NCBI GenBank assembly: GCA_039621445.1
Contig: CP154954.1
Span: 12,456,716-12,520,715 of the forward strand
Source of the DNA: Euglena gracilis
Taxonomy: Eukaryota
Direction: 5' to 3'
Length of the DNA: 64,000 nucleotides
The notes under the pieces were generated by a model, which saw nothing but the letters and a program-made list of their open reading frames with translations, made no database searches and was not told the origin of the DNA. The first letter of the stretch is position 1, and each line of letters opens with the position of its first letter. Positions 11,101-63,897 of this stretch are shown here, in pieces. A program made the translations under genes and the position numbers.

Positions 11101-14100
11101 TTATTATTCCCCTTTCTTTTTCGTTTTTGCCGTCGTTGCCTGCAAACGCCTTCCCCTTCTCCTCAACAACGCTTGTGCATGTGGTACCATGCCCCCCCCC
11201 CCCAAAAGGACCCCCGTTCCCTCAAAGTCCCAGGGGTCTTTTATGGATGGGGGTCTTATACAAGCGGTGTCGGTCTTGGACGAGGGCCAGTATACATGGG
11301 GGCATGGTACACGTATGCACTGTTTTTACGTCATCTCATTTGATGGCGATCACATCATCGAAAGACAATGCTCACATGACATCCCATAATCTTGTTAATT
11401 TACTTGTTGTTGTTTTGTGTGCTACCAGTCCTCTTCCAAAGGTGTTGCCAGTCTGTTTGCGATGAGGCACGACAGTCTGTCCATCTGAAGCAAATGTGCT
11501 CAGGATTGGATGTGCAATGTGTTTGTTTTGAATCTGAAGGGACCACCAGATTTTCCAGACCCCTCACTCCCAAGCTAATGTTTTTGAACGACTCCATTTT
11601 GTTGTGGAGCTTTGGGAAGTGCCCAACAACGTTTCGGCATAAATGACGCCCCCGGGCAATTGTCACCCCCCTCTGTGCCGGCCAAATTGTCACCCCGGGA
11701 AATTGTCACCCCCCCTCCGTGCTGCCCAATTTGTTACGCGACAATTGCCCAGGGGGGAGGGCGGGTAAATGTCTGCAAAGTTTTTTTTGGCTTCTTTCTG
11801 CCTACCTCGCTGCATTTATCTCATGGAATGTGTTGGCTTGCTTTCCTTTGGGAGTGCGCCACCAATCATTGCCCAGTGAATTGCCGTCAGCTGGCAGGTT
11901 GTGGGTGGGGCCATCACGTCCTTTGCAGTCCTGCCTGTGGTCGCAGCTGCTACAGCGTATGTGGAGCTCGGCACGGCTGAGCCTGCGGCCCACTCGGAAG
12001 GCCTCCGTAGTGCTCTCTGTCGTTCTGCGATGGCCCCAGGTTGCGGTTCGAAACCGTCGCCGAATGACGCCGTCCCAGACCATCCCCACGTCACACGTGT
12101 GCTACCAACTGAAGCGTGGCTGACCCTCGGCCGCTGCTTTTCTGAATGCTTTGCAAGTAGCATTCCACAACTGTGTCAAACCTCGCATTGGGCAGGGATT
12201 GTCGACCCTGTCCGACACCTGACTTTTGGAGTGTTGAATTTGTGAATGCGTATGCATCCTGCAGAAGCTTCTGCTTAGGTTTTGCAGTAGCAATTCCTGG
12301 GGGTGGGCTGGACTGCAGCAACTCCAAATTACAAGATTATTGACTCGTCCAATTTGGGTTGTGGAAATCCCAGTGTGCCACCCAACAATTTTTTCGTTCG
12401 TCAAAGTGCCAAAGTTTGTTTGTCAAAATTTGTCAAAATGCCAGGTTTTGTACAAGAGGGTGTCTATCAGTGGCTTTTTTCTAATGGCCAGCACTTGCAA
12501 GCTAGTGGACCCCCCGGGGCCTTTAATAAGAACCTAAACTACACCAGCGCAGTGTTCCTCAGGAGCAAAGTCAACTGTCTGTCAAATTCCTGCTTTTGGA
12601 ATCGCGGAGAACACCCAGACACACCACCACCTGTTTTGGAGCTCTCCAATTGAAAAAAGCGGACTGATTGTGGTGGATCCTGCGTTTTCAGAGCTTCATA
12701 TTCTGGCAATTATTTGTTCGCGATGCGAAGAGGCAGAGGGACCCAAGAGTCCCTTTCTCAGCGAAGCCTGAACAATAAATGCACTTCAATTCTTTTGCAG
12801 AAAATTTTGGGGAAACTTTTCAAAGGAACTCATGCGGAAAACAATTACTCCATGTTACTGGTCTATTTCCTCGTAGTCCTCCTCCATCGTATTTCCTGTT
12901 TCTCGGGTCCCAGGACCAGAGTTCACATGGAAATGTCTTTGGTACCAATTTGGCATCAAATCAGGTACTAGATGTCTGGTCAGTGCAAGTAGGGGGCATG
13001 TGGTTGGTTTTATCTTGGTCCCAGGTGCAATGCTTGTTCTTGAGCAATCTGAAAAAGTGCTGCTGGTGGTGCTGCTACTGCTGCATTATTTGTGAGCTGA
13101 CCCAACTGGTGACAGCTTGCTTCCCATCGCGCGTGTAGACTGAGGTTGTGGTCAGCTTCCCACCGCCCTGTTCCACGCTTGTCTCCCCGCACAGTGCGGC
13201 TTCGCTTTTCCCCTCCGCCACCAAACATGGCCATCGTCATCCCAGACGAGTATGGGTACGTGGTGCTGGTGATCGGGCTCTCCTGGTCAGGCTTCCTTTT
13301 TTTGTTTTTTTGACGAAGCTCACCCCGGGGGGGGGGGGTGCTGTAGGCAGGCAGGGGGGAAGGGCATTTTCGACCTATTCGGGTTTTGGGTGGGTCGTGC
13401 TATAGCACACGCCCCGTTGCCGAAGGCACCGGGGCCTCAAAATGGCCATTTCAAGGGATAATTGGCTGGGTCAGCAGGCACCAGGGCCAGAACTGACCGG
13501 GGGGGGGGTGACTGCCCACCTGCTCATAGCACCCCCCCCACGTTGGCAAAAACAAGCCTGGTCCTGGTTCATGAACCTGTACCTGATGACCCTCGTGATG
13601 AACGCCCGCAAGAAGTACAACGTGCCGTACCCGGCGCTGTATGCCGCCCACAGGCTTCTCCACAGACTGTTGTACGGATCTGCTTCATTTCACTCCAGTG
13701 GGCAGCTCTCCAGAGGTTTTCTTAAGGCCGGGTGAGGGGGTTCGCACTGAACACCTCCCCACGCGGGGGAGGATCAGTTTGGGTGGTTTTCCTATTTATC
13801 GCAAAAAAAATTATTATTCCCCTTTCTTTTTCGTTTTTGCCGTCGTTGCCTGCAAACGCCTTCCCCTTCTCCTCAACAACGCTTGTGCATGTGGTACCAT
13901 GCCCCCCCCCCCAAAAGGACCCCCGTTCCCTCAAAGTCCCAGGGGTCTTTTATGGATGGGGGTCTTATACAAGCGGTGTCGGTCTTGGACGAGGGCCAGC
14001 ATACATGGGGGCATGGTACACGTATGCACTGTTTTTACGTCATCTCATTTGATGGCGATCACATCATCGAAAGACAATGCTCACATGACATCCCATAATC

Positions 14101-16517
14101 TTGTTAATTTACTTGTTGTTGTTTTGTGTGCTACCAGTCCTCTTCCAAAGGTGTTGCCAGTCTGTTTGCGATGAGGCACGACAGTCTGTCCATCTGAAGC
14201 AAATGTGCTCAGGATTGGATGTGCAATGTGTTTGTTTTGAATCTGAAGGGACCACCAGATTTTCCAGACCCCTCACTCCCAAGCTAATGTTTTTGAACGA
14301 CTCCATTTTGTTGTGGAGCTTTGGGAAGTGCCCAACAACGTTTCGGCATAAATGACGCCCCCGGGCAATTGTCACCCCCCTCTGTGCCGGCCAAATTGTC
14401 ACCCCGGGAAATTGTCACCCCCCTCCGTGCTGCCCAATTTGTCACGCGACAATTCCCCGGGGGGGAGGGCGGGTAAATGTCTGCAAAGTTTTTTTTTGGC
14501 TTCTTTCTGCCTACCTCGCTGCATTTATCTCATGGAATGTGTTGGCTTGCTTTCCTTTGGGAGTGCGCCACCAATCATTGCCCAGTGAATTGCCGTCAGC
14601 TGGCAGGTTGTGGGTGGGGCCATCACGTCCTTTGCAGTCCTGCCTGTGGTCGCAGCTGCTACAGCGTATGTGGAGCTCGGCACGGCTGAGCCTGCGGCCC
14701 ACTCGGAAGGCCTCCGTAGTGCTCTCTGTCGTTCTGCGATGGCCCCAGGTTGCGGTTCGAAACCGTCGCCGAATGACGCCGTCCCAGACCATCCCCACGT
14801 CACACGTGTGCTACCAACTGAAGCGTGGCTGACCCTCGGCCGCTGCTTTTCTGAATGCTTTGCAAGTAGCATTCCACAACTGTGTCAAACCTCGCATTGG
14901 GCAGGGATTGTCGACCCTGTCCGACACCTGACTTTTGGAGTATTGAATTTGTGAATGCGTATGCATCCTGCAGAAGCTTCTGCTTAGGTTTTGCAGTAGC
15001 AATTCCTGGGGGTGGGCTGGACTGCAGCAACTCCAAATTACAAGATTATTGACTCGTCCAATTTGGGTTGTGGAAATCCCAGTGTGCCACCCAACAATTT
15101 TTTCGTTCGTCAAAGTGCCAAAGTTTGTTTGTCAAAATTTGTCAAAATGCCAGGTTTTGTACAAGAGGGTGTCTATCAGTGGCTTTTTTCTAATGGCCAG
15201 CACTTGCAAGCTAGTGGACCCCCCGGGGCCTTTAATAAGAACCTAAACTACACCAGCGCAGTGTTCCTCAGGAGCAAAGTCAACTGTCTGTCAAATTCCT
15301 GCTTTTGGAATCGCGGAGAACACCCAGAAACACCACCACCTGTTTTGGAGCTCTCCAATTGAAAAAAGCGGACTGATTGTGGTGGATCCTGCGTTTTCAG
15401 AGCTTCATATTTTGGCAATTATTTGTTCGCGATGCGAAGAGGCAGAGGGACCCAAGAGTCCCTTTCTCAGCGAAGCCTGAACAATAAATGCACTTCAATT
15501 CTTTTGCAGAAAATTTTGGGGAAACTTTTCAAAGGAACTCATGCGGAAAACAATTACTCCATGTTACTGGTCTATTTCCTCGTAGTCCTCCTCCATCGTA
15601 TTTCCTGTTTCTCGGGTCCCAGGACCAGAGTTCACATGGAAATGTCTTTGGTACCAATTTGGCATCAAATCAGGTACTAGATGTCTGGTCAGTGCAAGTA
15701 GGGGGCATGTGGTTGGTTTTATCTTGGTCCCAGGTGCAATGCTTGTTCTTGAGCAATCTGAAAAAGTGCTGCTGGTGGTGCTGCTACTGCTGCATTATTT
15801 GTGAGCTGACCCAACTGGTGACAGCTTGCTTCCCATCGCGCGTGTAGACTGAGGTTGTGGTCAGCTTCCCACCGCCCTGTTCCACGCTTGTCTCCCCGCA
15901 CAGTGCGGCTTCGCTTTTCCCCTCCGCCACCAAACATGGCCATCGTCATCCCAGACGAGTATGGGTACGTGGTGCTGGTGATCGGGCTCTCCTGGTCAGG
16001 CTTCCTTTTTTTGTTTTTTTGACGAAGCTCACCCCGGGGGGGGGGGTGCTGTAGGCAGGCAGGGGGGAAGGGCATTTTCGACCTATTCGGGTTTTGGGTG
16101 GGTCGTGCTATAGCACACGCCCCGTTGCCGAAGGCACCGGGGCCTCAAAATGGCCATTTCAAGGGATAATTGGCTGGGTCAGCAGGCACCAGGGCCAGAA
16201 CTGACCGGGGGGGGGGTGACTGCCCACCTGCTCATAGCACCCCCCCCCACGTTGGCAAAAACAAGCCTGGTCCTGGTTCATGAACCTGTACCTGATGACC
16301 CTCGTGATGAACGCCCGCAAGAAGTACAACGTGCCGTACCCGGCGCTGTATGCCGCCCACAGGCTTCTCCACAGACTGTTGTACGGATCTGCTTCATTTC
16401 ACTCCAGTGGGCAGCTCTCCAGAGGTTTTCTTAAGGCCGGGTGAGGGGGTTCGCACTGAACACCTCCCCACGCGGGGGAGGATCAGTTTGGGTGGTTTTC
16501 CTATTTATCGCAAAAAA
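11101..16517. repeat. Tandem duplication, two ~2.7-kb near-identical units (11101-13810 and 13811-16517)
   Basis: Both units start TTATTATTCCCCTTTC and end CCTATTTATCGCAAAAAA. ORFs recur at offset 2709. Only scattered substitutions and homopolymer-length differences were seen. Confidence 0.97.
13227..13645 (+). pseudogene. Duplicated exons 1-2 of the MGST3-like gene (truncated copy or alternative 5' end)
   Basis: 13227-13284 and 13566-~13645 encode MAIVIPDEYGYVVLVIGLSWFMNLYLMTLVMNARKKYNVPYPALYA, as in the downstream copy. The duplication unit ends inside intron 2. Confidence 0.75.
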
Positions 16518-19500
16518 TACCGAGCAATTTTTTGCTCCTAAAGCTGATCTCCAGAAAGAAAGAAAGTGGTCATCCCGAATCCCCCCCCCCCAAGGGTTCG
16601 GGATGTCCACTTTTGTCAACTCTCCTGTAAAAAAATCTGTGCCCCGCTATCCCGAAAACGGCTAAGTCACCACTGGTTTCGGCCGTAAATCGGCCATATT
16701 TCGGGCCAGGCGTTGCGGGGAAATCAAAATACCATTGAATAGTCATCGTAAGTGCTTCAATTTCGGACTCCAGAAGTTTTCTTTTGATTTTGCTTCATTT
16801 CTGAGTATTTTTTTTGGAAACTTCGGTTTTTTGACCCCAAAAACGGCCCAAAATGGCCCAGCATTTGCAAGAAGGCTCTTCCCTTCTGGCACCCACCCTG
16901 GATCTCATGGGGAATGGGATGGAAGGCCCGTGCCGGGAGCAAGGACGACAAGGACCACGAGAAGTTCAATTCTGTGCAGCGCGCACACCAGGGTCAGGGC
17001 CCACCCTGGGGAACTGCCATCGGTGCCGCCATGGACCCAACCCGCAACCTTTGCGTTCAAGTCGAAGCCTTGCTCCCGCAGCTGCTGAGCATGCTGCTGC
17101 TGGGCACATTCCAAATGTAATGCAAGTCAATCAATGTGGACCGCAGTCTCCACGATGAAGGCGGTCTCCAGACTTGAACAACAATAATTGCAACAAACAA
17201 TTATGACAATATTGAAATGAAACTTCGTCTCCAGGGGGACCAGCTGAAGCCGGAGGGGACCCTCCCCCGGGGGTCCAGCCAGACAGCAACTTTTTTCCAG
17301 CCAGCACCTCCCAGCCAGGCTGCAGACCCCCCCCTGGGGGGTCCACACCCCCAACTGAAATAAAGCGCGAAGCAAAGCAAAGCAAAGCCAGCGAAGCAGA
17401 GCAAAGCAAAGCTGGGCCTGAAAATAGTTTGAAATAATGGGGGTAAATTGCCCCCAAAAACCCTCTTTTGGGTCGGGCTTGGGTTTTCCCTTTCAACTTT
17501 TGGTTAAAAATCCCAACCCAACTGAATTTGGGTTTTTTGGTCCCCGCCGGGCCCAGCTCCCAGCCGGCCGGACCCCTCCCTCTGGACCCCCATCCCCAAG
17601 TGGGGAGGGTGGGTGTCCAGCCGCACCTTTTTCCAGGAGCCTTTGAGAATAATCCCTGCTGGGGACCAAAATCAAGGATTCATTCATTCTTTTTGTCGAC
17701 GTTTCTGGCCCTGTCCAAAACATTAACTTGAGTCTGTCATCTCCGAATATTTTTGCGCACCAGATGCATGTTTTGGAGTCTGTGTCCCAAAATCAATTTT
17801 TGACACTCAGAACCAGGGTACTCCTTAAGGCGTAAACTTTTAAAGAGTTTTAATGTTTTAAGGCGTATTCTGAGGTTTTTTTTTTAGTCATTTCTAGGTG
17901 TGTGTTTTCATGGACGTTCAAAGGGAGCCTTCCCGGGATCGAACAGGGTCAAATCAAAAAAGTTGAGGACCCTATTCTTGACAATCTTCCAGTGATGCCA
18001 GAAATCATTTTCCCCCCATCTTACTTTTTGGTTTGCCGAGGTTTTACGGCTTCATTTTGGCTGTAATTTCGAGAACTTTTTTTTTAAAGATCTTAAGGCT
18101 TTAAAGGGATTTTTAAGTCATTTTGGCCAAGAAATTCATGGTTTTTAAAGGCGCTTTGTTATCTTATCCGTTATTTTTTTTGTGCTCCTGGTCTTCCTTG
18201 TCTCAACCCCAGGGGGATCTTCCCTTTCTGGAAACCAGCGCCGCCCTGGGCGCAACACGCTGGAGTCCTGGGGGCCCGTCCAGATCCTGATGCTGGTGGA
18301 CGGGCTGCTGTTCCCCGAGGGGGCCGCTCCGCGCGCGTCCTCCCACTGCTGCTGCTGCTGTGTTGCATGGCCGAAAGAAATGTCCATTGGTCTCCAAAAC
18401 TTTGTCCAGCTGTCAACGATGGAAAATGTTTCTGAAAAAGTCAACGTTCCAAACCAAGGTCAAACGTTGTTGTCCCCATGAAAGGCACTCGTTGAGTTTC
18501 TCCTTCTGGAGAAATCTACAGAAGCTGTAAGAGTTTCTCATTTTTGTGTAGTTTCTCATTTTTGTGTTGTTTCTCTTTTTTTGTGTCGCCACATTTTCGT
18601 GTGTATGTGTGTGTGTGTGTGTGTGTGTTCAGTTATTTTTGCTTTATCACATGTGATGCAATGAAGCTGCCGGCGGTCCACAAGGTTGGTCCCTCCAGTG
18701 GCCCTGCCCCAAGCTTGCAGCGACGTTGGGCCTCGTGTGGGTGGCGGGGCGATTCCTCTACGGTGCAGGCTACGCGAGTAGGGGTTTTTTTATTCGTGGA
18801 CCGGTGGGTGGGTTTGGCCGAGCCCCGCCGGGGGATGTCCCCCAGGGGGGAGTGGCATATGCTATTTTTTGAAAAATTTTCGAAAATGTGCAATTTTCGA
18901 CATTTTTCGCGATTTTTGGCCATTTTCGGGGACAATTGAGTGGGTCCCCCGGGATCCCCTCTCAGGTGGTTCATGGGTGGGGGGACCCCCTCCAGGCCCC
19001 CCCCGCAACAAACCCGTGGATGCGAGCGGGGGGCCGGAGGGGCGGCGGGCGGGGGCCGGCCTCTCCGCCCTCGGGTGGCTCCCACTGGTGGTGCTCTCCC
19101 TCTACGTCGGGGCCGCTCTCGCGAAGCTGGTATGGGCAGGCTTCTTTCTACCACAGAAAACCGGTATTGGGGGAAGTTGCATTAATTTCATTAATTTTAT
19201 TTTTTCATTATTTTCATTATTTTTTTCATTTTTATTTCATTAATTTCATTAATTTCATTTCTTTTAATTAATTTAAGTTAAGACACCAAGCCCCAAGGTA
19301 TGAGTATGGTCAAGGTTGAAGAAGCGTGTTGAGTACCAGAGTTTTTTTTATATTTTAAAAATGGTTCAAAAATTGAAGGGAAAGTGTGGGTGTGAGGGAC
19401 GTTTCACTAGGCATTAGGCACACCAAGTCTGGGTTCGCAGTTTTTTTTTTTGCGGATGTATGTGTATGTTTGTGTGCACCAGAGGTATTATTATTAGGTT

Positions 19501-19690
19501 CCCTTTTCAGTGCCTTTTTCAAGCTATTTCTAAAGAGAAAAATTGGTCCCAAGCTACAGAGTTTAATACAAAAGGTGAAATATGAGGGAATTTGTTGGTT
19601 TTGAGGGTCTTACAGATGGGTCGTTTTAGCGAAGGTCCCCCAAGGGGTTCCACCCCGACACACCGCAGGTAACCAGAAGCCTGGGCGCGA
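15936..19690 (+). CDS. MGST3: MAPEG family microsomal glutathione S-transferase 3-like protein (~145 aa)
   Basis: Exons 15936-15993, 16275-~16354, ~16935-16991, 18254-~18316, ~18711-18775, 19024-19133 and 19689-19690 give MAIVIPDEYGYVVLVIGLSWFMNLYLMTLVMNARKKYNVPYPALYAGSKDDKDHEKFNSVQRAHQNTLESWGPVQILMLVDGLLFPKLAATLGLVWVAGRFLYGAGYASGGPEGRRAGAGLSALGWLPLVVLSLYVGAALAKLV*. MAPEG motifs ARKKYxVxYP, FNxxQRAHQNTLE and GRxLYxxGY are present. Confidence 0.93.
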
Positions 19691-20529
19691 GGCGGTGTCG
19701 CCTGCGCAGCAATGTCGCTGGCCATTGGCAGCGATTATTGATCTTTTTCTCAGCCTGAACTGCAGGCTTGCCCTGTGTTCTCGCTCCAGTTCCCGTGCTG
19801 TTCATTTCGGCGGTGGGTATCTGTGATGCCGGGTTGGCCAAAGCCCACCTGTTCGGGGCCCACCTGTTGCAAACGCGCTCAACTGTGGCCCGATAGCAGT
19901 CGCCGGTGCCTGTATGTCACTGACCGGTCCAGGCCTACTGGAGTGTCATTCTATTTACCAGACATGCCGCCCCGCCCCTCAAAGGGTTGTTTTTGCCCGG
20001 CTTTGTGTCGTTGCCCCTGATCCGCCGACTTTGGGGCGTCCATTTCTGGAGTCATTTCTAGGTCCGTTTCAACCTCAGGGCAATTCTAGTTTGGGCCTCT
20101 GCTGTGTGGGGTCAGCCTACAAACCATTCCGACCGGAATTTGAGAAATCAGACCCAAAGTTTCCAGCATCTCAGGTGGACTTTTCTCCTGGTCCATGAAG
20201 CAACACATTTAAAGTTTCAAATTTTGATTCTTGTGAGAGGGATGTTTTTGAGAGAGGGTGTGCTGGGCCCCCCAGGCAGGTCAGGTGCCGCTGGGGGGAT
20301 GGCTTCTGGAGGGGGTTTTCACTTTTTCAATTTTCACTTCAATTTTTGAGGATAGCATATTCATATTTCTGTGGGAAAATATTCCCCTGGTTAAAAATTG
20401 ACAATTTCTTCTGCCTTCTAATTCAGAATGTGAAAAGGCATCGCTTTACTGATTTTTTTTGTGTCAGCTGAGGTTCGAAAAAAATGTCATTTTCCCCCCG
20501 TCTGACCCAGAACCCATACAAAATTGTCT

Positions 20530-21058
20530 TCTGGTCTGGTACACGCTGCCCGTCTTCATACCTGTGTACTTCCTGATTTGTCTGGCGACAGTTTCCCAGG
20601 GGGCAGGTATGCTCTCATACATTTTCACACTATGTTTCACATGTAAAACATGGAAGGCGCGTCGCGGGTCGAACCTGATTTGTTTAGAAAAGAACCCAGC
20701 CCCCCCCCCCCAATACAAACCGCCCTGAAGGGTTTTGGTTCCACTCCAGAGTTTACATGGGAACGTCTTTGGTACCAATTTGGCATCCAATCAGGTACTG
20801 GACGTCTGGTCAGTGGAGGGAGGGGCATGCGACTTTATCTAGGTCCCAGGTGCAATGCTTGTTTTCTGTCTGGTACACGCTGCTCCGTCTTCATATCTCT
20901 ATGCTCGCTGATTCGTCTGGCGACAGTTTCCAGGGGGTAAGTATGCCCTCATACATTTCCACACATGTTTCACATGCAAAACATGGAAGGCGCGTCGTGG
21001 GTCGAACCTGATTTGTATAGAAAAGGACCCCAGACCCCCCAATACAAACCGCCCTCAA
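20530..21058. repeat. Diverged direct repeat (period ~335 bp)
   Basis: GTCTGGTACACGCTGC...GGGTCGAACCTGATTTGT...CCCCCAATACAAACCGCCCT occurs twice. Confidence 0.85.
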
Positions 21059-22544
21059 GGGGTGGTCCAGCTTCTTCAAAGAGCTTCAACGTCGTCACAC
21101 AAAAACAAAGGAAATGGTTCCATAACACGGAACACCTGGAACACCTGGCAGTTGAAACCCATCGGTCGGCAGAGGTGGTAAACCACCGTTTTCAAAACGA
21201 AAAAAGTCGATTCATCCAGAAAAAAAAATGGGGGTCAATGATACCCATTTTGGTAACATTTTGGGGGAAAATGCACTGCCGAAGTCGGTGCGACACAAAA
21301 CGCTGTTTTACAGGGACAAACCCTGGTCAGGTGAAACCTTTGAGCTGTCCCCCCTGTTCAGTAGTGTCCAGTGACTGCGCAGGTGCACATTCACCCCCTC
21401 CCCGTCCCGGCTTTTTCCTGAAGTTTTTGGACGGTAATTGTGGCTCCCGGGGGTGATTGTGGGAGCGGGTACCGTGGTCCATATGGTTAGACTGGAGGGG
21501 GTGTTCGGTGCCCTGCGTTGGAAGCAGGGCACAAAGGTGCGATGGTTTGTAATTGAGACATGCATGTGGCATGCGTTAAAAGAGTAATAGGGAGGATGTG
21601 TCGAAACCCACACCAGATGTCCGTGGGGAGGACTCGTTACACTCCTCAGGCTGCCTTCTGTTTACATTTCACACGGTGCACCTCACCCCTCCGCGACACA
21701 TGCAGGAACAGCATCCCTCCAGTCGTGCACAACGTCCGCTCAGCATGCCTTCTCATATGCACCATGGCGCATCACCGTGTGGGACCACCTGGTTCGGGTA
21801 TGCCGATTAGTATGGGGCATACGGTGTGTGTCTATTTAGTGGTCGTTGGACAAGGTGGGGGGGAGGTAGGAGGGGCTATCTTGCTCTCTTTTGCTGTGTG
21901 CCACTGGTTTCTAAAGCCACCGAGCAGAGCCCCGCTTCAACCCCTTTCTGCCACCAACTTTCTTCCCAGAACAACCCTCACAAACAACATAAAACGACCC
22001 CCTCTCTGAGGACTCTCTGAGGACTAAAATGCGCAAGTGCGCACTCTTGAGGCCATTCCTTGGCTGGCTGGTGGTGATTCTGGCTGTATGGAGGGAGGAG
22101 TGCTGGGCGCACTGATGGGCTAAAATAAGCGAAAATAAGCACAAAATATACACTCCGCACCTTCTGTTTAAGACTGGGGCCTGCCCAGGAGGTGCCCACT
22201 ACCCTCCCCCCCCGGGGGGGGTCGAAGGGATCCACGTTTTTAAGGGTCGATTCTGGGACCCAACAAAATAAAAATGGACAAACCCCCTCCTTTGGCAGGG
22301 GATCAAAAAGCCTTTGGGCGTATCCCCGGGTGGAGGGGGTCTAGCAGGTTACCCCCCCCCCCCCGGGCTCCAATGTTTAAAAACGCCTTGCCCCCCCATC
22401 CACCACAGCACCGTGCAAGCCCAAAAATATGGAATGGCCTGGTGGGAGAGAGGGAGGGGGTCGGGTCCCCACGGACCCCATTGAGTTTTGGGGGTTCCTG
22501 TACGTGCCCCATGCCCCAAACTGCCAGAGGTTGTCAGCGCGATG

Positions 22545-22670
22545 GCCGCGGCGCAGGGCGTGCCAGCGGAGGGCTGCGCGGCGCGCCATGAGCTTCATCC
22601 ACGCGGCCCAGTACCGCTTCAGGCGCAGCTGGTGCTGGGCCCGCAGCAGCCAGTACAGCTCCCTGCACAG
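22545..22670 (-). CDS. Possible isolated exon of unknown protein (LCRELYWLLRAQHQLRLKRYWAAWMKLMARRAALRWHALR)
   Basis: GC-rich third codon positions and protein-like composition. Strand and boundaries are uncertain. Confidence 0.4.
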
Positions 22671-23869: not shown

Positions 23870-24376
<507 letters not shown>

Positions 24377-24384
24377 GTTTATAT

Positions 24385-24679
24385 CAGGCTGTATTTAGTC
24401 GGGTGCTTACTCCACCCCGGGGGGGGGGTGCCTGCTTGGGCAGGCACTCCAAGGCACTCCCAATCCGCCCCCCCCCCCGGGCACATGGCCAAAAGTGTCC
24501 TAGCACAACCCTGGCGCCGAAGGCGCCGGGGAGCTAAACATAGCCTATTTTCAAAGGAATGTGCCTGGGCACAGCCCGAAATCCGATCCCCCCGGGGGGG
24601 GGGACAGTGCCTGCCTGGGCAGGCACTCACAGGCACTCCGGACCCCCCCTCCCCCCCGGGGTTGGTGAAAAACAGCCTG
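24385..24679. mobile_element. hAT-like MITE
   Basis: TIR CAGGCTGT / ACAGCCTG; TSD GTTTATAT / GTTTATAC. Confidence 0.85.
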
Positions 24680-26572: not shown

Positions 26573-26697
26573 GGCCCTATCCCTACCCAACCAACCAACC
26601 AACCAACCTACCAACCAACCAATCAACCAACCAACCAACCAATCCCGATCCAACTTTGCGATCAAGCGTGCCGCGTTCTTTGAATCTGGATGCCATA

Positions 26698-51777: not shown

Positions 51778-51830
<53 letters not shown>

Positions 51831-54800
51831 TGCCAGCCAGCCTGCCAGCCAGCCTGCCAGCCAGCCTGCCAGCCAGCCAGCCAGTCAGCCAGCCTGCCAG
51901 CCAGCGTGGCCATCCCTGCGGAAAATCCCCCCCTCCGGACTGCACAGTGACTCACTACTCCCTCGCCTCCCTAGCCCCCTCCCGGACGTTGGCCAACCAG
52001 TCTTGCGTGGTCCTCGGCCTGCAGGCGGTCCGCCTCACGTCGGCCGTGGCGGGGGGCCACCTCTGCAAAGTGCGGGTTGCAGCCAGTGGAACCATCTGCG
52101 CCGCCAGCTACTGCCCACGATTCTGTGAGCACAGTGTTTGTCCGTCTCGGGTATTGCGGAAGAGTTCGGGTTGTTGTGGGACATGCGGACCCCCCGGGGC
52201 CAGCTAGCCAGCTGACTGGATCGTTGGAGAGGGGTTCAAAATGTTGCAACCTGTGATTGCACCCTTACATTTCCCAGAAAAACAACACCTGACACACCAG
52301 GGAGTATACAGCAACATTGCCGTCGCCCGGACTTAACCATATCCGATACTGGCCAACCAGCGATTTGATAGTTTGCCAGTTTCCCGGGGCGAGAAAAGGT
52401 CCACATGCCCCGGGTTCCCTCGGCATGTTTCCTGCTATTGCAGAGCTCCGGTGTGGTGTGGATCAGCCCCAAGCGCACAACAAAGTGCTTCCGAAACGGC
52501 CAAGTTTTGTGAATGCCCCCCCCCCCCAGCGGTGCCACAGGGTTGTGGCGGAGGGTCCGGCCGCTGGCCCCTCCCGTCCAGTCCAAGTGGATCTCACCCG
52601 TCCCCGGCACCCCGCTGGCCAACGGAGCGGCCGTACCGCTGCGGGTCACGGATTACGCGTACCCCGGGGTGGACGGGTACACCACCGAGGTGACAGCGGC
52701 CCTGCGGGTATTGTACCGGCTCGTGCCCCAAGGTGTGGCGGTGAGTTCCGCACAGCGCGCCACACAGTGCGCCTCGCGGGGGGGGGGGGGTCCGGCTGGA
52801 CAGCCGCCACCAGGATCGTTCCCCGACTTGTGGAATGGGGATTTGAGATCCCGCTCTGTGCCTCCCGAACATTTTGGCCATTTTGCTTGGTGCCCACTTG
52901 GCCCCCTGCCCCATCGCCAACTTGGCTGAAGCCAGCCACCGAGGGGGGCAGGCCCCCCAAGTTGCATAGCGTCCTCCAAGGAGCTTGGTGAGAGTGTCTT
53001 TTATTAAAATTATTGAAATTTATTAATTATGAATTAATTATTAATTTATTTTTATTTATTGATTATTTATTATAATTAACTATTAACTATTAATTATTAA
53101 TAATTAAAATTATTAAAATTAAAACAGTTTAATATCAAGTCACGCCCTCTCCCACGTCTTGTCTACCCTGACGTGGTCCAGAATCATTCATTGGTGCATG
53201 TTTTTTGTCCATTACCTCAACCCTTTTTGTAGTTCTCCTGGAGCAATTGGGCACACAATAAGGAGCATCCATTTTCATACACGTCCACTTTTACGGGCCA
53301 CCTCCCCAAGCCCTACTGCGAGCCCCACAACCTCTGCGGTGTGGTGATTGTGGTGATGTTACACCCTGGCACGGCACCGCCCTGCTCAGCAGGGCCCCAG
53401 CCAGCTCTGCCGCCAGGCACTCTGCAAACTTGAGGCTGGACCTTTGAGAGCAATCTGTTTCAATTTTTATTATTATTTTTGTTTCATTTTATTTTTTTTT
53501 CAATTTGTGACTCCTCCGAAAATGCCGCTTCAGCCTTTCAACGCCCGCCCTCGAAAGGGGGGGAGCGGTCCATACTGGGGCAATCTTCGAACCTATGTTT
53601 GGACGACAGGTGTTGGCGACCCCCGTTGACGCTGGCTGTGCATGCCGTGACTCGGCCACAGTGACAAATGACACTTTGGCCCCATGACAAGCTCCACACC
53701 CCCGCTTCAGGTGGCAGCCCCAGCACTGCGTACACCACCCTCGCTCCCGTCGTGGCCGCCGGCGACGTGGTGTCCATCCGGCCTGCGCCGCCCCGAATTT
53801 CCAACGAGATCGACCTATTAAATGTTCCGATGGAGACATTCCCGTCGAACTTGAAATCTGGCTGTTCATCACAAGGTTGACGCACGGAAGCAACTTTGGC
53901 CAATCTTTTGCACCCGTTTCATGAACAAGACATCGCAGTGTTTGCACAAGCGAACAATTTTCTCCTTCCTAACAGGGGCGACCCAGCCCCCAGGTGCAGG
54001 CGGAGGGCTATTTCCTGCCGAGCGTTCCCTTCGAGGCGCAGTACCCCTGCAACGGCTCTTGTTCCGCTCAGGGCCCCTCACACTTTCTGGGTTTTCACCC
54101 GGAAGATCAAGCGTATGTATGGTTCCAGGGCAACTCACCAGTGAATTTGATTTTCACCATACACCCCTGATGGGAAGTTGTCATCCCGGAGAATCTGTCA
54201 GGGTCCCTACTGGCCGACGTGTCTCGTGACATTTTCCGGAGGGGGTGTATATACCGATACGGAGCGCGCCTGCCACTGCCGCTCAGCCGTCGGCGTCTGC
54301 GCCGACTGACGTCGCCCTGGTCGGCATCGTCTGTGGGGTGCCCGGGCCGGATCATTTCGGTGCGGGTGACACTTTGGGCAGAATGGAGGGTGCCGTGGTG
54401 AGGAAGTTGACAGCCATCCCTGCGCGATGCCACACACTGCCCTGCCTTCCACGCCCAGCTGGAAAACAGTTGCAGAGCTGTGTTTTTGCCATGTCAAAAT
54501 CAGTGTTCAGGCCCTTCGCCGCAGCTGCCATCTGGACAGCACCTTCAGGGACTGCTGGGACAATAGAACTATATGCAATTTTGCCAAACCTTTTGAAATG
54601 CCCATCATTGACACTTCTTTTTGTTTTATAATTTTTTTTCTTTTTAAAATTTCAGAACAGTAAAAAAAAAAAGGGTAAACCCCATTTCAACCTCCGCGGC
54701 GCCGGAGGAATCCAGAACTTCCCTGGTGGGGGGGCCTGCCACGCCAAATGGCTGCTTTCTGACCCAGATGGCGTCAGCCAGTTTTGCTCAGGACGGAGGG

Positions 54801-56029: not shown

Positions 56030-56935
56030 AGACCAGACCAGACCATACCATACCATACCATACCATACCATACCATACCATACCATACCATACCATACCA
56101 TACCATACCATACCATACCATACCATACCATACCATACCATACCATACCATACCATACCATACCACACCACACCACACCACACCACACCACACCACACCA
56201 CACCACACCACACCACACCACACCACACCACACCACACCACACCACACCCACACCCACACCGCACCGCACCACACCACACCACACCACACCACACCACAC
56301 CACACCACACCACACCACACCACACCACAACACACCGCACCACACCACACCACACCACACCGTGCCATACCTACCCCCCCCCCCCCCCCGGAAACTGTCA
56401 TGCCCGAGAACCTGTAAGCGTCCATTCCGGGAAACTGTCAGGGTCCTCGGTACCGGCCAACCTGTCAGTATAGGAAGTTGTCAGGGTCCCCGGTACTGGC
56501 CAACCTGTCAGGGTCATTTTTCATTGACTTTCCCTTGAAATGCCCTACCCGGGAAACTGTCAGGGTCCCGCCCGGGAAACTGTTAGGGTCCCTGGTACCA
56601 GCCAACCTGTCATGATAGGAAGTTGTCAGGGTCCCCGGTACCGGCCAGCCTGTCAGGTGACAGTTTACCGGGGGGTAGGTACCATACCATACCATACCAT
56701 ACCATACCATACCATACCATACCATACCATACCATACCATACCATACCATACCATACCATACCATACCATACCATACCACACCACACCATACCATACCAT
56801 ACCATACCACACCATACCATGCCATGCAATGCCATGCCATGCCATGCCATGCCATGCCATGCCATGCCATGCCAGGCCATGCCATGCCATGCCATGCCAT
56901 GCCATGCCATGCCATGCTATGCCATAACGATACCA
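56030..56935. repeat. Compound pentanucleotide satellite (ACCAT/ACCAC/GCCAT)n interrupted by a MITE
   Basis: Read directly from the sequence. Confidence 0.95.
56370..56679. mobile_element. TA-flanked MITE within a pentanucleotide satellite
   Basis: CCTACCCCC...CGGAAACTGTCA / TGACAGTTTACCGGGGGGTAGG with TA flanks; internal CTGTCAGGGTCCC repeats. Confidence 0.8.
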
Positions 56936-59277
56936 TACGAGGTTGTATGTGAGTGGCACATTTGCACCCACAAGGGATTCAAAAAGACAGCAAAAGAACA
57001 GTGTGACTCGGAGCGACGGTGTTCGAGCTAGTGAGCCTGATGCCTTTGCGGTCGATGGTATTGTGCTGGAGGAGGACACCATCGAACATGCCGGTGTGTT
57101 TTGATGGGTGCCTTTGAAATTGTATATTCGAGGCGTTTGGGCACCTTCCCAAGGTTTACAGCTTTGCCAACAAAATTTTACAAAAATTGTAAATTTTTTA
57201 TGTAATTTGTATTATATTTATAATTTACATTTATTTAATCTTTATATAATATTATATATATTTCCTTCAATTTTATATTTTTAAAAAAATTGAGATGTGG
57301 ATGAAAGTTGGTTTTTTTGGGGGCCAGGCTGCTGACGACCGCCGCGTTGGCATTGTCCCGCTGCCGCAGGGGTGACGTACTCCCTCGGCACCGTGATGGG
57401 ACAAGGCTCTGGCCACAGCGCCGCCCTCCCGCCGCGCGCCGCTCTGTACCGCCACAGCCTCCCGGCTGCGTTCGTTCAGGAGTAGCTGTGTGTGATGCGG
57501 CGCAACCTCCGCTGCTTTGCCAGCTGGCGAAGGACGGTCCAGATGTCAACAGGGCGGTGTGGGGTATGTCACAATCACTCATCGTGCTTGGGTATTGTGT
57601 GTGACACTGTCTGTATGACCTCCTCCCAATGTGCATTCACAAAAAATTTCTCCAAATATGAAATCACCAGCATTACTGAAGTGTTTTGCATCGCTCTGTT
57701 CTTGTTTCATTTCTTCGGGTTTTGCAAATCTGAGAATCAGGCAAACATGTGTGTAAATACGTGGCGATGTCTGTGTGCGCGCGCGTTCATGCATGCGTCT
57801 GTGCATGCATGTACATGTGTTTATGTGCCCACAGAGAAAATGGAAAAAATGCAGAAAATAGATGGCAGAATGTCCCACAATGATGTATGATATCAATTGG
57901 TGAACCCCAGCCATTGACTGGAAGTCTGAACAGGCAGACCCCCCATTTTATCCTCCACCGAACTCACCACATTTGCAGCAATGTCATGTTGGAAGTGTTT
58001 TTCTTTCAGATGATCATTCGCTTTTCGCTTTTTTCCAGTTGCAGTAATTCAAAATATTATTAGTCATATTAACATTAACTTTCCACAATCTGGCGGTGAT
58101 GTTCTTGTCCACGTGATGTTTGTTCAAGTAACCGTCAACACGGGGGGTGCACACAGCAGACCAAGACCCTTAGCCGATCCAACATGCAGTTTGTTTAGAC
58201 CCTGCGCTTTCAGCTTTCTGCGGACCCCGCACTTTACTTGAGGGGTGGGGTTTGGCTCACCCAGTTCCCCGTGCTTACCCAATGTGGTTTTTTTGATGGT
58301 GAGAATTGGAAAAAATTCGGAATTGATTTGATTTCGCCGTTGAAGGCCGGAAAAAGCGCAAGACGTCCAACGAAACGACACTCGTTCCCCATCCTTGCGG
58401 TCAGGGCCTTCCTGAGATGGAGCGGTCCACCACTGTACAGTTTCCCCCTCCGCCTCTTCAGGCGCTACCCCGGCTTTCCGCCGTTACTCAAGACATACAC
58501 CTCCTTAGGGGGTTGCCCAAAACTAATCATTGTGTGCTTAGTCTGTACATAGCCAATTTGTGGTAAATTGTCTTCTGTGCCTGTCTTGCAACCACTGCCA
58601 AAGGTGAAGGGTGATTCAAAGGCTCATTTCCTAGAGAACATTATTCTGCATTAAGAGAAAATGATTCAAGCATGAGGAGTTTTTCATAGCTGCCGTGTTT
58701 TCTTTTATTTCTTTGGTCCTTGACTGCTAACCCTAAACCGCAGAAGTGAGAGCTCATTCCGAAACATCTTTTTCCGTAAGTAAGTAAGTAATGGCACAAT
58801 GCATTAAATCCTCAAATAATTACCAATAAATACTCAATTACCAGTTTATACAATTTTTCAAGATATTTTGTTTGCCTTATGCGTTTATGCTGCACCATCC
58901 CGCCGTTATGTTACCCACTACGTTGTTGTTATCCCTCCTCCGAGACAGACAGCTGCACCGTTGTTTTTTTTTGAAAACCGTTGTGTTGTTAGGCACAGGG
59001 GTCGGAGTTTTCAACAACATGCAGGAACACAAAATAAAATTTGTGTTGTTTCTCATTGTAAAATCCGCCCTTGCTTCTCAGCGACTCAATAAGAGGGTAG
59101 TAACGGCCTTTAGGGAACTGTGAGACAACGGACAGCTATTTTGGGAGCGCGAAACGCCGAATTTTTTTTGGGAAATGCCCTCAGACAGCCCGTTTTTTGT
59201 GGGTGCCGTGAGGTGTCCCGCGATCGGCTGGGTGGGTGGTGGGTCCCCACAGGGGTTTGAAAAATGGTGGCCCTTTT

Positions 59278-59294
59278 TATTATTGTTATTGTTA

Positions 59295-59326
<32 letters not shown>

Positions 59327-59495: not shown

Positions 59496-62400
59496 ATGGG
59501 CGGCGCCGCCAGCGCCCCGACCGCGCCGCCCACCACCCCCAAACCCCCGCTGACCTCCACCACGCTCCTGTCCCCGCCCAATGACCTCCTCCCCAGGGAT
59601 CCATCGGTCCTCAGCACCCTCTGGGCAGGCTCCACACATTGTGTTTGCCCGGGGGCTTCGTGCCACATGTTTGCTTGTATTTTTTGTGCGTCCGAGTGAC
59701 ATCATTATTTCTGTTTTGATTTTTTCAGGTCGATTTTCTGCGTGTACACCCTCCCACTTTTCCCTCATGTTTGGCTGCCCCTTGGGGGGGGGGGGTTGGG
59801 ATCCCCCCAGGACCCAGTGGGTATTCCACTCTCGGAGATGGGTGTTTCCTCCCTTCTTCCTTTTGACCCCAAGATTCTTTTGACCCCCCAAAAGTGTGTC
59901 CCCCGGAGCCCCCTTTCCCCCCGCCAGGGCAATACCAGAATCGGCCAAACAGCCAGGGTGGTGGGTGGGGGGAGTCGACCCCCCCCACCTCTTCCCGTAT
60001 TTCGGGGAGCACCAATTTTCGACTCCAAAAAAACTTCCCGGCGCCTTTGGCACCGGGAGAAATTCGTTTCCAAAAATCTGTGAAAATAATGTGTTGGGTG
60101 GGGGGTCGACCCCCCCCACCAGGCTTTCCCGTATGGCCCTGCCCCCCGCAGATGGGGGGCACTGTGGCCCCCAGGTGGCGGGCGGGTGGGTCCAGACCCC
60201 TCCCCAGTCCTAAAAGAAAACCGTCCGCCCATTCCCCTTGGATGGGGGGCTATGGCCCCCGGACATTTGGTCTCTGGACAGAAGTGTCACAGAACAAACG
60301 TCCGCACTGCCATACCCTCATCCGGTCCCTGCCGCCGTCCAGCGCGTACCACCTCTCGGCCACCGGCAACCTGCAGACCACCCAGTCATGGCAGAGCAGC
60401 CGCCCCGGGACGGACCTTGGAAGTAACCTGTCCCCCATCCACCTTCGGACTGTCCCAGATATTTTGGCTTTGGGGGGTGCTGTAACCCCTATATACAACC
60501 CCTGGGTTTATATTTGGCGGGAGACCCTCAGAGGGGGTTTGTATATGGTATGGTATGGTTTGTATATTTCCAACAAAAAACCGAACTTGCATGCTGAAAA
60601 GCGCTTTTTGTTCCCCAAACAATTGGCGCTCATTTTGCCCAAACTCTACCATTTTTTTTTGAAGCAAACGTCCTGCTGCTGGGCACCATTTTTGGAGAAA
60701 TGTGGCGATTTCATTCCTAGAACTGCCGCAAAACGGCTAATTTTCAAGTTTTTTTCTCGTCGACATTTCCCCGGAGCGGTTAATAGTTGGTTGCCAAATC
60801 AAAGCATGTTTGGGGGGTATTTCATGTGCCCCCCTTTTTTAATACCACAACAATAATTTGTTTTTGTTGTTACGGGGTCTTTTTTTACAACGCCCACCCC
60901 GGCCGCCAGTTCCCCTCCGTCCTCAAGCAGAGCCCCGCGGCGGACATCGTGCGCAGCATTGTCATCGCGCAGGACAAGGCGGAGCTGCTCACGACCAGGC
61001 TTCTGTTTTCTCGGAAGACCTTCCCTTTCGGGTGGTTGGGTGGGTGGGGCCGGGACCAGGGTTTGATACAAGGAGGGCGTACATGGTTTAGGTGGGGGGT
61101 GTCCCCCCCCCCCTCCTGGCCCGCAGGGGGGGGGCCGCCCCCCCCCCCCCCCCCGCCCGGGGGGGCCGGACCGGCCCCGGGGGGGGACCCGGGGCCCCCC
61201 CCCCAAAAAGGGTCAACTTTTTCCTCCGCTTCTTTCCGGCGCTTTGCGCCGAAATTTTTTTTTGCATTCTTTGCACATTTTTGCCCAAAAAAAGTGCCCA
61301 AAATGGCACTTTTGGTCGTTTTGGGGGGTCAAAAATTTTCGGCCCGGCGCTTTGCGCCGGGCCAAAAATCGGTCACCCGGACCGCGCCACTGTTTAGGTG
61401 GGGGGGGTCCCCCCCACCCCCCCCCCCCCCCCCGGGCCCCAGGGGGGGGCCAGGGCCCCCCCCCACCTGTCCTTATATCGAACCCTGGCCGGGACCCTGT
61501 CCCGGGCCAGCCAGGTGGGTGGGTGGGGTGGAGCACCCCTTTCCCCGAGGGGGGGGGGTCAAAACGAAGCCTGTGCACGACCCTCACGGCCCGGCTCCAG
61601 CAGAGCGAGGCGCTGCGGAAGGAGGTCCTCCCTGGGCCGGGCCGCCGGACGCAGCCCGGGGGTCAGCGGCGGGAAAGCGGAAACATCGGGAACAACGAAC
61701 GGATGAACAGAGCCACTGAAAGAAGTCTGAACACTGGGTCGGTTTCCAACCGTGTCGTGGTGAAAAAACTCCCAGAATGGATTTTTCTGGGCCTCCGGCG
61801 CCTTTCGAGCCCAATTTGATTTTGCCAAGAGGGCTTTGACTAGCCCCCCCCCCCCCCCAATGCAAAGCCCCCGTTTTTATATTTGGGCGGACATTTCCAG
61901 ACCATGAGCAGGGGTTCTGTTTGGATCGGAAAATCAAGTTTCTGCGACCAAAAATATGAATACAATCCCCCCATTTTGTCTAAGTTTGACCATTTTAGGC
62001 AACATTCCAGCTGACGATCATTCTTTTCCCCAAAGTGTCAAAATCATGACCTGTCACCAAAATATGAATTTATTGGGATTTTTTTCCCGCCAGGCTCGAC
62101 TGTCAACGTTGTCGGCGTCTCCCCGGAAGTTGTATTGGGCCGGTTTTCAAGACGTGCTGAGGTGGTGGTGGAGGAGGGGCATTTCAAACTCTTTCAAAAG
62201 CAAATGCATGTCTCGCTTTTCCTCCATACCCATCATGAACATGTTGGAGCTTCTCCGCGAAAGCAGTAGGAACCTGCAGGCCACAAATAAGAGGCTTCCG
62301 CACAATTCATGATCAATGTGAAATTGCAGCACATCTCGAGGGGTTGATTTCTTCGGCACAAAGTTCGTTTTATAGGATTCTATGGGGAAATTTGATTATT

Positions 62401-63897
62401 GAAAGCTATGATGAACCCCAATAATTGTCTTAATTTGAATTATTAGGTACGTCCCCCTTTGATGATACAACATTTTACAAGGTCGAATTAAACAAAAGCA
62501 CGAAAAATTGTTGTCCGTTCATTGCAACAAGAATGCCATCCCATCGTCAACCCCCCCCCCCCCCAGTACTGGCCCGGCAGCAGCGGGCAAACCATCCTTT
62601 TTGACTGGACGGACGCCCATGGGCCCAACCTGCCCCTGGAGCGCATGTGCGAGTATGGCAAGAAGGCGAAGCGGCTCGCGCCGAAGCTGGCAGTGGTGCG
62701 CTTCGTCTCCCTTGTGGCCCGGGACTTGCCCCGCCCCCAGGGTGTGACGTGGGTGGTTGTGTGATGTGTGCCTCCCAATTTGAGGATCTGCTCCCTTGCC
62801 CACAGAATAGGGGCAAGCATGCCAACCCACACATGCACGTGTGTATGTGCACGTAGGTGCAGTGGATGCAAGCTCTTGACTCTCAAGCTCATATGCAACA
62901 CCGACACAACACACAACAAGCACAGCACAACACAATCTGCACAGATCAACGTCACATGGACTGATAAGTGAGATTGTGATCAAACCCTGCCCTGCAACAG
63001 CTGTAACCCACTGTTGAACCATGGCTACGAAGGCCGGGGACCCCTGCAGTAGCATTTTGCATCGTGCAAATACGTTGAATCATTCACACTGCTGTTTTCA
63101 AGGTCACTTATTCCACGGTGACTGCCAACCGTTATTGAACAATTCTCTGGCTCGTCCGCCGAGCATTGCTTTTAAGGTGATCTTGACTTTAGCTGATTTT
63201 GTCAGGGTGCTCTGCGATGGGCATTTTGGCGGACGTACTTGCACTGCGTGCTGAGGAGCTGGGCCTACACCCTGGCACGGTGGCTGCCTGGGGGCGTCCA
63301 GGCAGGTATCCTGTAGCCAACTGGATGGTTAATGGTGTAGGCGTGTTATTTGTTCTTCGTTTGGGGCTTCTCTCTGCTTCGACAGGCGGTTTTTACCATT
63401 TGCCCATTATTATATCTTTTCATTTTCTTCCTTTTTCTTTCAGATTGTCTGTTGAAAACTTCTTTCCTCCTCCCATCATGGTACCTCGTCCCCCCCCCCT
63501 GGGCTCTTGGCCCCTCGGCATTTGCCCCCCTCCTTTTCACATGCAAACCTGGCCCCCCAAAAGTTAGGTTTTGATCTTATATTACGATCGCGGCTTTTTG
63601 GCTCAATTTGCGTTTGGCCGGCTAAACATCTGACCATCCAATCTTGGCACCTGTTGTTGGCCCCCCCAACCTTATTTTCAATTGTGTGCCCTGGCCAAGC
63701 GCCCGGGCTCTGGCCTGGGGCGCAGTTGATACTTTCCCGCCGCCAACCCCAGCGCATCATGCAGGACGACGTGATGCACCTGGGGCTGCTCATCCTGGAG
63801 TTCCTCGCGCCGTACCCCCTGTTCTCGGAGGGGTTCGTCCAGACCGGGGGGCCCGAGGTCCTGGCCCAGTTCCTGCTCAACACGGAGCGGCCCAAGC
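59496..63897 (+). CDS. 5' part of an uncharacterised multi-exon protein with an MG N-terminus (possible myristoylation); continues beyond window
   Basis: Exons from 59496 MGGAASAPTAPP...; ~60317-60384 LIRSLPPSSAYHLSATGNLQTTQ; ~60877-60992 FFYNAHPGRQFPSVLKQ...ELLT; 61579-61624 TLTARLQQSEALRKE; 62567-62687 YWPGSSGQTILFDW...APK; 63252-~63301 LRSWAYTLARWLPGG; 63753-63897 RIMQDDVMHLGLLILEFLAPY... Confidence 0.7.
59925..60141. mobile_element. hAT-like MITE, family C (short member)
   Basis: TIR CAGGGCAATAC / GTATGGCCCTG; exact TSD CCCCCCGC; subterminal sequence shared with 32928-33495. Confidence 0.88.
61057..61487. mobile_element. hAT-like MITE, family B, nested in nonconventional intron 60993-61578
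   Basis: TIR CAGGGTTTGATACAAGG / CCTTATATCGAACCCTG; exact TSD GCCGGGAC; interior matches 5358-5795. Confidence 0.92.

Follow-up and report, generated by a model that had tools for sequence, protein, structure and literature searches.

Nonconventional introns in a 64-kb window of Euglena gracilis as probable descendants of inverted-repeat elements with 8-bp target duplications

Results

The stretch of DNA analysed here, called the window below, is 64,000 nt long and belongs to Euglena gracilis contig CP154954.1 (assembly GCA_039621445.1, positions 12,456,716 to 12,520,715 of the forward strand). Its G+C content is about 52% and no Rfam match was found in it. The window carries an expressed MAPEG-like gene interrupted by six nonconventional introns, together with dispersed MITEs (miniature inverted-repeat transposable elements) that are flanked by 8-bp direct repeats (Table 1). 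Positions 11101-13808 and 13811-16517 form a 2.7-kb tandem duplication with 99.56% identity, in which exons 1-2 and intron 1, at the 5' end of the MAPEG-like gene, are repeated; the upstream copy looks truncated.

Public RNA evidence, namely the raw reads of run X21 and the transcript contigs of runs X15 and X17, was compared with window positions 13811-23800. This span was chosen away from most of the tandem duplication and from the satellite arrays, and includes four of the introns listed in a first-pass annotation that had been made from the letters alone. Contigs and depth of DNA run X14 were compared over the same span. X14 depth was about 900,000 at 14144-14476 and about 93,000 at 21803-22135 against about 200-300 in unique bins, indicating very high-copy repeats.

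Table 1. Features of the window. Cores are the inverted-repeat elements between the 3-nt and 5-nt spacers; the fifth column gives the 8-mers beside the element and the number of matching positions.
Feature	Position	Strand	Structure	Flanking 8-mers	RNA joint
MAPEG-like gene, expressed	15903-19970	+	six nonconventional introns; spliced-leader acceptor at 15903; transcript end near 19970
Intron 1	15994-16274	+	3 nt + 273-nt core (15997-16269, CAGGCTT..AAGCCTG) + 5 nt	CTCCTGGT / GTCCTGGT, 7/8	15989>16271; 281 nt skipped; slidable by 7; 258 X21 reads; X15 but no X17 contig
Upstream tandem-duplicate copy of intron 1	13285-13565	+	same insertion, not an independent event	7/8
Intron 2, not listed earlier	16355-16937	+	GCC + core CACAGGCTTC..GGCCCGTG + CCGGG; CAC..GTG tips	2/8	16354>16938; 583 nt skipped; fixed, split 3+5; 51 X21 reads, X15 and X17 contigs
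Intron 3	16992-18253	+	GGT + core CAGGGC..GCCCTG + GGCGC	1/8	16991>18254; 1262 nt skipped; fixed, split 3+5; 46 X21 reads, X15 and X17 contigs
Intron 4, not listed earlier	18313-18710	+	394 nt, start within 18313-18317; no CAG/CTG ends	TTCCCCGA / TGCCCCAA, 6/8	18312>18707; 394 nt skipped; slidable by 4
Intron 5 (family B)	18776-19023	+	GAG + 240-nt core (18779-19018) + GATGC	TACGCGAG / GATGCGAG, 6/8	18773>19022; 248 nt skipped; slidable by 5
Intron 6	19134-19688	+	GGG + core CAGGCTTCT..AGAAGCCTG + GGCGC	4/8	19133>19689; 555 nt skipped; slidable by 1
Family A copy (intron 1 family), doubtful as an intron	40033-40616		mutated 3' tip	ACTCTGAC / ACTCTGGC, 7/8
Candidate intron	60993-61578	+	GAC + core CAGGCTTC..GAAGCCTG + TGCAC; contains a nested MITE; frame open on both sides	CTCACGAC / TGCACGAC, 6/8
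Weak candidate intron	62688-63251	+	5-nt end complementarity	4/8
Family B element	5144-5843		homologous to intron 5 core; holds nested MITE 5358-5795	GTCCTATC / GCCCCATC, 6/8
Further candidate element	41334-42136		first 10 nt of the ends identical (CAGGCTTCTG), 11/18 compared	CCCCTACC / CCCCGAAC, 6/8
MITE	828-1266		17-nt perfect inverted repeat starting CAGGCTTTTGC; 87.6% identical to 7636-8079	CTTCCCAC
MITE	3045-3375			GGGTGGGC
MITE	5358-5795		19-nt perfect inverted repeat; nested in 5144-5843	GGTGGGTG
MITE	7636-8079			ATCATATC
MITE	8624-9113		CATAC..GTATG ends	ATTTCCAC
MITE	24385-24679			GTTTATAT / GTTTATAC, 7/8
MITE	25916-26207		CATAC..GTATG ends	GTCCAGTC
MITE	32928-33495		family of 59925-60141	CCCCCAGC
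MITE	50293-50610		16-nt perfect inverted repeat	CTTTCAGT
MITE, short	59925-60141			CCCCCCGC
MITE nested in candidate intron 60993-61578	61057-61487		family of 5358-5795	GCCGGGAC, perfect

An unaligned end, ATTTTTTTTC, which we take to be a Euglena-type spliced leader added by trans-splicing, preceded position 15903 in 51 reads, and molecules begin or end at 19970. When the RNA-defined exons were joined, an open frame of 143 codons was obtained. It gave weak Pfam matches to MAPEG in exon 2 (E 0.098) and exon 5 (E 0.0027), at the collinear profile positions 10-33 and 81-100. Intron 6 straddles the stop codon, with the T of TGA in the upstream exon and GA in the downstream exon.

The joints of introns 2-6 were present both in the X21 raw reads and in the X15 and X17 contigs. 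All six introns of the gene are non-GT-AG (skipped ends TC..GG, GC..GG, GG..GC, CC..TG, GC..AT and GG..GC), and no GT-AG placement was found within the slide range of any of them. For the three introns whose junctions are fixed or nearly fixed (16355-16937, 16992-18253 and 19134-19688), terminal complementarity starts 3 nt in from the 5' border and 5 nt in from the 3' border; for the three slidable introns the same 3+5 placement falls within the slide range. The slide lengths (7, 5, 4 and 1) are the runs of repeat identity in the flanking 8-mers. Exact CAG at +4..+6 and CTG at -8..-6 occur in three of the six (15994, 16992 and 19134), and CAC/GTG in 16355. Intron 18776 has TAG/GTG with partial pairing, and intron 18313 has GGG/CCC only under one chosen placement. 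In the order of the introns, the downstream exon opens with G, A, A, either C or A (according to how intron 4 is placed), G and G.

The first-pass annotation had listed eight introns, and their coordinates and letters were as described when checked against the sequence. The RNA was compatible with the junctions of all four that lie in the compared span, and placed that of 16992-18253 exactly where it had been predicted. A fifth is the tandem-duplicate copy of intron 1, while 40033-40616 and 62688-63251 are doubtful as introns. With the junction given for 40033-40616, the open upstream frame reaches a stop after 16 codons; reading through 62688-63251 instead of splicing it meets an in-frame stop.

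Each RNA-confirmed cut removes a core plus 8 nt. The first-pass annotation had described the 8 nt on either side of the element as often a decayed direct repeat. In the six confirmed introns the flanking 8-mers match at 7, 2, 1, 6, 6 and 4 positions, in total 26/48 (0.54). As a control, the left flank of each intron was paired with the right flanks of the others, a comparison that retains any border consensus shared by the introns; these 30 mismatched pairs gave 0.287 (binomial P 2e-4). The observed sum was reached in 8 of 720 permutations. When the three candidate introns were added, 43 of 72 positions matched, a value reached in 2 of 20,000 permutations. The signal is confined to one length: identity was 0.54 when the duplication was taken to be 8 nt long, and 0.24-0.33 when it was taken to be 4-7 or 9-12 nt long.

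A form of the gene without intron 1 was also detected. An X14 DNA contig with a depth of 249.6, i.e. at single-copy level, joins 15989 directly to 16271 and differs from the window at 16280 and 16282, 9 and 11 nt past the junction. Both variants were also seen among the RNA, in 112 of 289 reads (about 39%). Unaligned RNA ends at 15947 and 16355, together with variants at 16280-16336, reveal an expressed, diverged paralogue with another 5' leader and another third exon. None of the other five intron joints of the gene was found in DNA run X14. These observations indicate an expressed paralogue or allele without intron 1, whose junction looks like what splicing yields from the copy with the intron. 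The earlier proposal that splicing restores the sequence as it was before insertion agrees with both results, the RNA cut removing the core plus 8 nt and the product equalling the uninterrupted paralogue.

Eleven clean elements with 8-bp duplications were found outside the confirmed introns, ten with perfect duplications and one at 7/8. Ten such MITEs had been noted before; the anatomy described then, with perfect or 7/8 duplications, stands, and only the count changes. The elements are 217-568 bp long, their inverted repeats match at 11-16 of the first 16 nt, and identity beyond the eight duplication columns is at background (4-10/24). All eleven start with CA, nine with CAGG and two with CATAC. 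Three two-copy families (828/7636, 5358/61057 and 32928/59925) share 82-88% identity and have different duplications at each copy, as transposition predicts.

A blind scan for 8-nt terminal inverted repeats returned 12 pairs whose perfect flanking repeat was exactly 8 nt long, several of them microsatellite artefacts, against 0.08 expected; the same scan returned one pair at a repeat length of 7 nt and none at 9 nt. A stricter scan gave 20 hits, where 40 simulated windows averaged 0.575, and a second setting had a simulated mean of 1.3. Of these, 9 of the 20 hits, and all but 19 of the 871 hits at the second setting, fall within the (TATACA)n array (23850-24400) and were dropped by eye. This array yields hundreds of spurious matches of inverted plus direct repeats in naive MITE scans. 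The pair 13288-16269 was dropped as a product of the tandem duplication, and five weak or low-complexity pairs were discarded as well (923-2464, 4343-4417, 8720-8989, 15269-18190 and 53011-53102). When metagenomes were scanned for the 19-nt inverted repeat of family 5358, six loci came up that matched the 19-mer only, with neither a second arm nor internal homology, and these were regarded as chance matches. Elements of different families (828-1266, 7636-8079, 8624-9113, 50293-50610 and 5358-5795) have a TAAGG block in common, in subterminal position about 12-17 nt from the tip, and a shared transposase may bind there.

Two intron cores are members of dispersed families in which another copy has flank repeats of its own. 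With the nested insert taken out, the element at 5144-5843 can be aligned to the intron 5 core over the full length (175 of 220 aligned columns; score 217, compared with 54 +/- 8 in 200 shuffles). At the point where 5358-5795 carries its duplication, the intron 5 core has a single related 8-mer and so can stand in for the empty site. For the intron 1 core the partner is 40036-40611, to which it aligns in its 5' two-thirds and at its 3' end, and this partner has flanks matching at 7/8. DNA depth in introns 2, 3 and 5 was tens to hundreds of times that of the unique bins (10-300x), although depth is not equal to copy number. With the young perfect-duplication MITEs the intron cores share only the tips.

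The motif CAGGCTT, for which about 3.9 occurrences per strand are expected, was counted 18 times on the + strand of the window and 9 times on the - strand. No partner is obvious for ten of the + strand sites (3508, 9302, 13651, 19763, 41469, 44302, 48275, 49262, 49596 and 60120), that at 13651 being the tandem-duplicate copy of 16360. These sites may be the 5' ends of further introns whose 3' ends have decayed.

No transposase was found among the 10 longest of the window's 149 stop-to-stop open reading frames (at least 130 amino acids), none of which had a Pfam family. The duplications of the 11 MITEs show a weak palindromic bias, with G1+C8 in 13/22, T2+A7 in 10/22 (P 0.02) and Y3+R6 in 17/22. 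With the introns added, T2+A7 reached 17/30 against a background of 0.237 (P 1e-4; small sample). Position 8 is C in 8 of the 11 duplications (P 0.0025), position 7 is A in 4 and position 6 is a purine in 7.

Elsewhere in the window, satellite arrays occupy 23877-24360, 35005-35455, 51765-51905 and 56032-56938 and consist of (TATACA)n, 2.8 copies of a 163-bp unit, (CCAG)n and (ACCAC)n. A telomere-type repeat of about 29 CCCTAA units lies inside the window at 26413-26585, and again at 26698-26750.

Discussion

The nonconventional introns of this window probably are, or descend from, MITEs that duplicate 8 bp of target on insertion, and splicing removes the element together with one copy of the duplication. 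This reading brings together the RNA junctions, the 8-nt arithmetic of the cuts, the repeats at the flanks, the free elements with exact duplications, the shared families and the paralogue without intron 1. It implies that the introns would have arisen by transposition rather than gaining their appearance later.

The proposed mechanism is as follows. A transposase making staggered cuts of 8 bp in the target would insert a non-autonomous element. In the pre-mRNA, the terminal inverted repeats, with tips that are mostly CAG..CTG, would pair, and the non-GT-AG machinery would cut 3 nt ahead of the 5' tip and 5 nt beyond the 3' tip. The exons would then keep positions 1-5 of the left copy and positions 6-8 of the right copy, which together make one intact target. 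Since the element and exactly 8 nt are removed, the exons would rejoin as the pre-insertion sequence, and a coding sequence would tolerate being hit. Exonic insertions would survive because the offsets of the cut add up to the length of the duplication.

The same arithmetic bears on the published border consensus. Milanowski et al. (2016) reported a pyrimidine followed by a purine (Y|R) at both borders, with A as the second base of the downstream exon in 43 of 55 introns and C as the third in 30 of 55. A Y|R consensus at both borders is expected if both borders copy one target. Under the 3+5 split, part of this consensus (positions 5|6, 7 and 8 of the duplication, each appearing once or twice) may thus be a target preference; the sample of MITE duplications given above is small.

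Several points weigh against this interpretation. The RNA-checked introns number six and come from one gene in one 64-kb window. Two of them have flanks at chance level (2/8 and 1/8) and one matches at only 4/8; that such flanks belong to old, decayed insertions is an assumption. What the cores have in common with the young free MITEs is limited to the first 4-7 nt (CAGG, CAGGCTT); the subterminal TAAGG that most young MITEs carry (5 of the 9 whose ends were compared) is absent from the cores. In families A and B, the copies to which the cores were aligned may be introns themselves rather than free copies. The strand bias of CAGGCTT could reflect selection as a splicing signal and not shared descent. 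The paralogue without intron 1 could be a case of intron loss or a retrocopy, and its next exon is too diverged to align (16355). Finally, global RNA folding gave pairing between +4..+6 and -8..-6 in one of the six confirmed introns and in about a quarter of the unconfirmed ones, although unconstrained folding of whole introns is uninformative for long GC-rich introns.

Which superfamily moved the elements is a separate question, and the label 'hAT-type' given in the first-pass annotation is not established: no transposase was found among the 10 longest open reading frames, and 8-bp duplications are also made by P elements and Merlin. A hAT-like transposase is our first guess, held tentatively and a little short of even confidence. 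The tips of hAT elements follow the consensus YARNG; taking this as the standard, 5 of the 11 MITE tips fit, whereas the 4 with CAGGC and the 2 with CATAC do not. The T2+A7 pattern resembles the hobo-type target NTNNNNAN (PMC3276498), but the weak palindromic target fits that of the P element, GTCCGGAC, equally well, and the P element likewise duplicates 8 bp (PMC3276498). It is quite conceivable, though not what we favour, that these are true transposons with 8-bp duplications, for which the 3+5 rule holds, but from Merlin, P or some other superfamily that makes such duplications. E. gracilis has been described as having two Merlin families whose DDE motif is intact and which duplicate 8 bp (PMC8101967), and among the papers found Merlin is the DNA transposon reported in this species, while our literature search found no paper reporting hAT in Euglena. 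Merlin duplications of 8 or 9 bp happen to equal 3+5 and 3+6, the latter figures being the 3' spacers that splicing tolerates (PMC12501133). On the other hand, Merlin has a conserved terminal 5'-GG (PMC8101967), with which none of our 11 elements starts, and duplications of 9 bp were absent from the blind scan.

The 8-nt border repeats might instead be scars left when a staggered double-strand break was filled in and repaired with filler DNA, in which case the introns would not be mobile elements at all. Just this was proposed, by analogy with Daphnia, for the eight-nucleotide direct repeats at a gapC intron present in only one strain of E. agilis (PMC4770533). We consider it very unlikely here. 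Break repair leaves unexplained why the repeat is always 8 nt, why the inserted DNA ends in inverted repeats, and why eleven elements that are not introns share the same anatomy with 8-bp repeats; the occurrence of cores in multi-copy families, each copy with its own flanks, also counts against it.

The resemblance might also be convergent: the CAG..CTG tips, the 3- and 5-nt spacers and the Y|R borders would be splicing signals only, the likeness of the flanks would stem from these signals, and the MITEs would be unrelated to the introns. In the knock-in tests of Nomura et al. (2025), splicing required CAG/CTG, spacers of 3 nt on the 5' side and 5-6 nt on the 3' side, and a purine at the exon start (PMC12501133). 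The strand bias of CAGGCTT and the absence of TAAGG from the cores point the same way. Shared signals, however, do not account for the identity of 0.54 between true flank pairs, as mismatched pairs with the same signals reach only 0.287; the published splicing code treats the spacers as N (PMC12501133), and no splicing requirement explains the end-to-end homology of two cores to other flanked copies. We regard convergence, too, as highly improbable. Least likely of all is spread through RNA, in which an excised circular intron would reverse-splice into another transcript and be copied into DNA: excised nonconventional introns do form full-length circles (review, PMC11282704), but a reverse-spliced intron would bring the 8 nt of its old site, whereas here the intronic 3 and 5 nt repeat letters of the neighbouring exons, and free copies with exact duplications lie in places without signs of an intron and also inside other elements.

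If transposition with an 8-bp duplication is taken as the origin, much of the background is already in print. A MITE-like origin of euglenid nonconventional introns was proposed in 2013, when no euglenid transposable element had been identified (PMC3935182); the gapC repeats followed in 2016 (PMC4770533), a 2024 review noted repeats like target-site duplications at intron borders (PMC11282704), and the spacer lengths were established in 2025. In the text of Nomura et al. (2025), the 69% of nonconventional introns that are slidable were set aside and the origin was called unclear (PMC12501133). Our full-text literature search found no paper equating 3+5 with one 8-bp duplication, and none naming free euglenid MITE families or linking them to intron cores. 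The novelty is narrower than the first-pass annotation suggested, the MITE origin, the junction repeats, the eight-nucleotide repeat and the spacer lengths having been published between 2013 and 2025.

The origin of these introns and their asymmetric +4/-8 geometry have been open since the 1990s, and for the MITE idea, put forward in 2013, no element had been demonstrated. If 3+5 is one 8-bp duplication, the geometry has an evolutionary reason, in that only a total of 8 restores frame and codons. Slidable introns, which were put aside in genome studies, would then be the most informative, since they would be the youngest, and the hypothesis would be directly testable with existing assemblies and the published knock-in assay.

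A wider proposal, which we think possible but unlikely, is that most euglenid nonconventional introns derive from one cut-and-paste group with 8-bp duplications, that the border consensus is largely its target motif, and that the splicing machinery is a means of precise excision at the RNA level. If so, most of the nonconventional introns, a class that makes up about 70% of all introns in E. agilis, would trace to one transposon group. The Y|R borders and the purine-A-C opening of the exon would be a palindromic target motif seen twice, and largely not a splicing signal. The machinery would measure 3 and 5 nt from paired tips, giving the 2-nt 3' stagger of a nuclease acting on double-stranded RNA, and would have co-evolved with the transposon system or been recruited from it, rendering exonic insertions neutral.

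Comparison with known systems

The introns of this window are ordinary members of the euglenid nonconventional class (Milanowski et al. 2013, 2016; Nomura et al. 2025), with which they share non-GT-AG ends, CAG at +4..+6 pairing with CTG at -8..-6, spacers of 3 and 5 nt, a purine as first base of the downstream exon, and borders often made slidable by direct repeats. The relevant passages of those papers describe neither free elements with exact 8-bp duplications, nor family links to intron cores, nor a reading of 3+5 as a duplication.

Among transposons, the MITEs of the hAT superfamily (hobo, Ac, Hermes) resemble the elements described here in their 8-bp duplication, in short inverted repeats starting CAG or TAG and perhaps in a weak target of the nTnnnnAn type; no transposase was found among the 10 longest open reading frames of the window, and the duplication length is shared with P elements and Merlin. 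Merlin F1 and F2 of E. gracilis are alike in their 8-bp duplications and different in their termini (PMC8101967), all of ours starting with CA.

A further parallel is that of the introners of Micromonas, Aureococcus and dinoflagellates, and of Amoebophrya, where they are noncanonical. These too are non-autonomous inverted-repeat transposons that lie in genes, are removed as introns and have the target duplication at the intron borders; the Amoebophrya introns have inverted repeats of 8-20 nt, direct repeats of 3-5 nt and noncanonical borders. Introners are cut by the spliceosome, with splice sites supplied by the element or by the co-opted duplication, and their GT/GC-AG splice sites are absent from all six introns of the MAPEG-like gene. 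In the window introns, by contrast, it is the spacing of 3 and 5 nt from the paired tips that sets the cut, 8 bp are duplicated, and the machinery is presumably non-spliceosomal. If the transposon origin is correct, these introns add a non-spliceosomal case to the introner phenomenon, and this could explain a genome in which more than 70% of introns are noncanonical.

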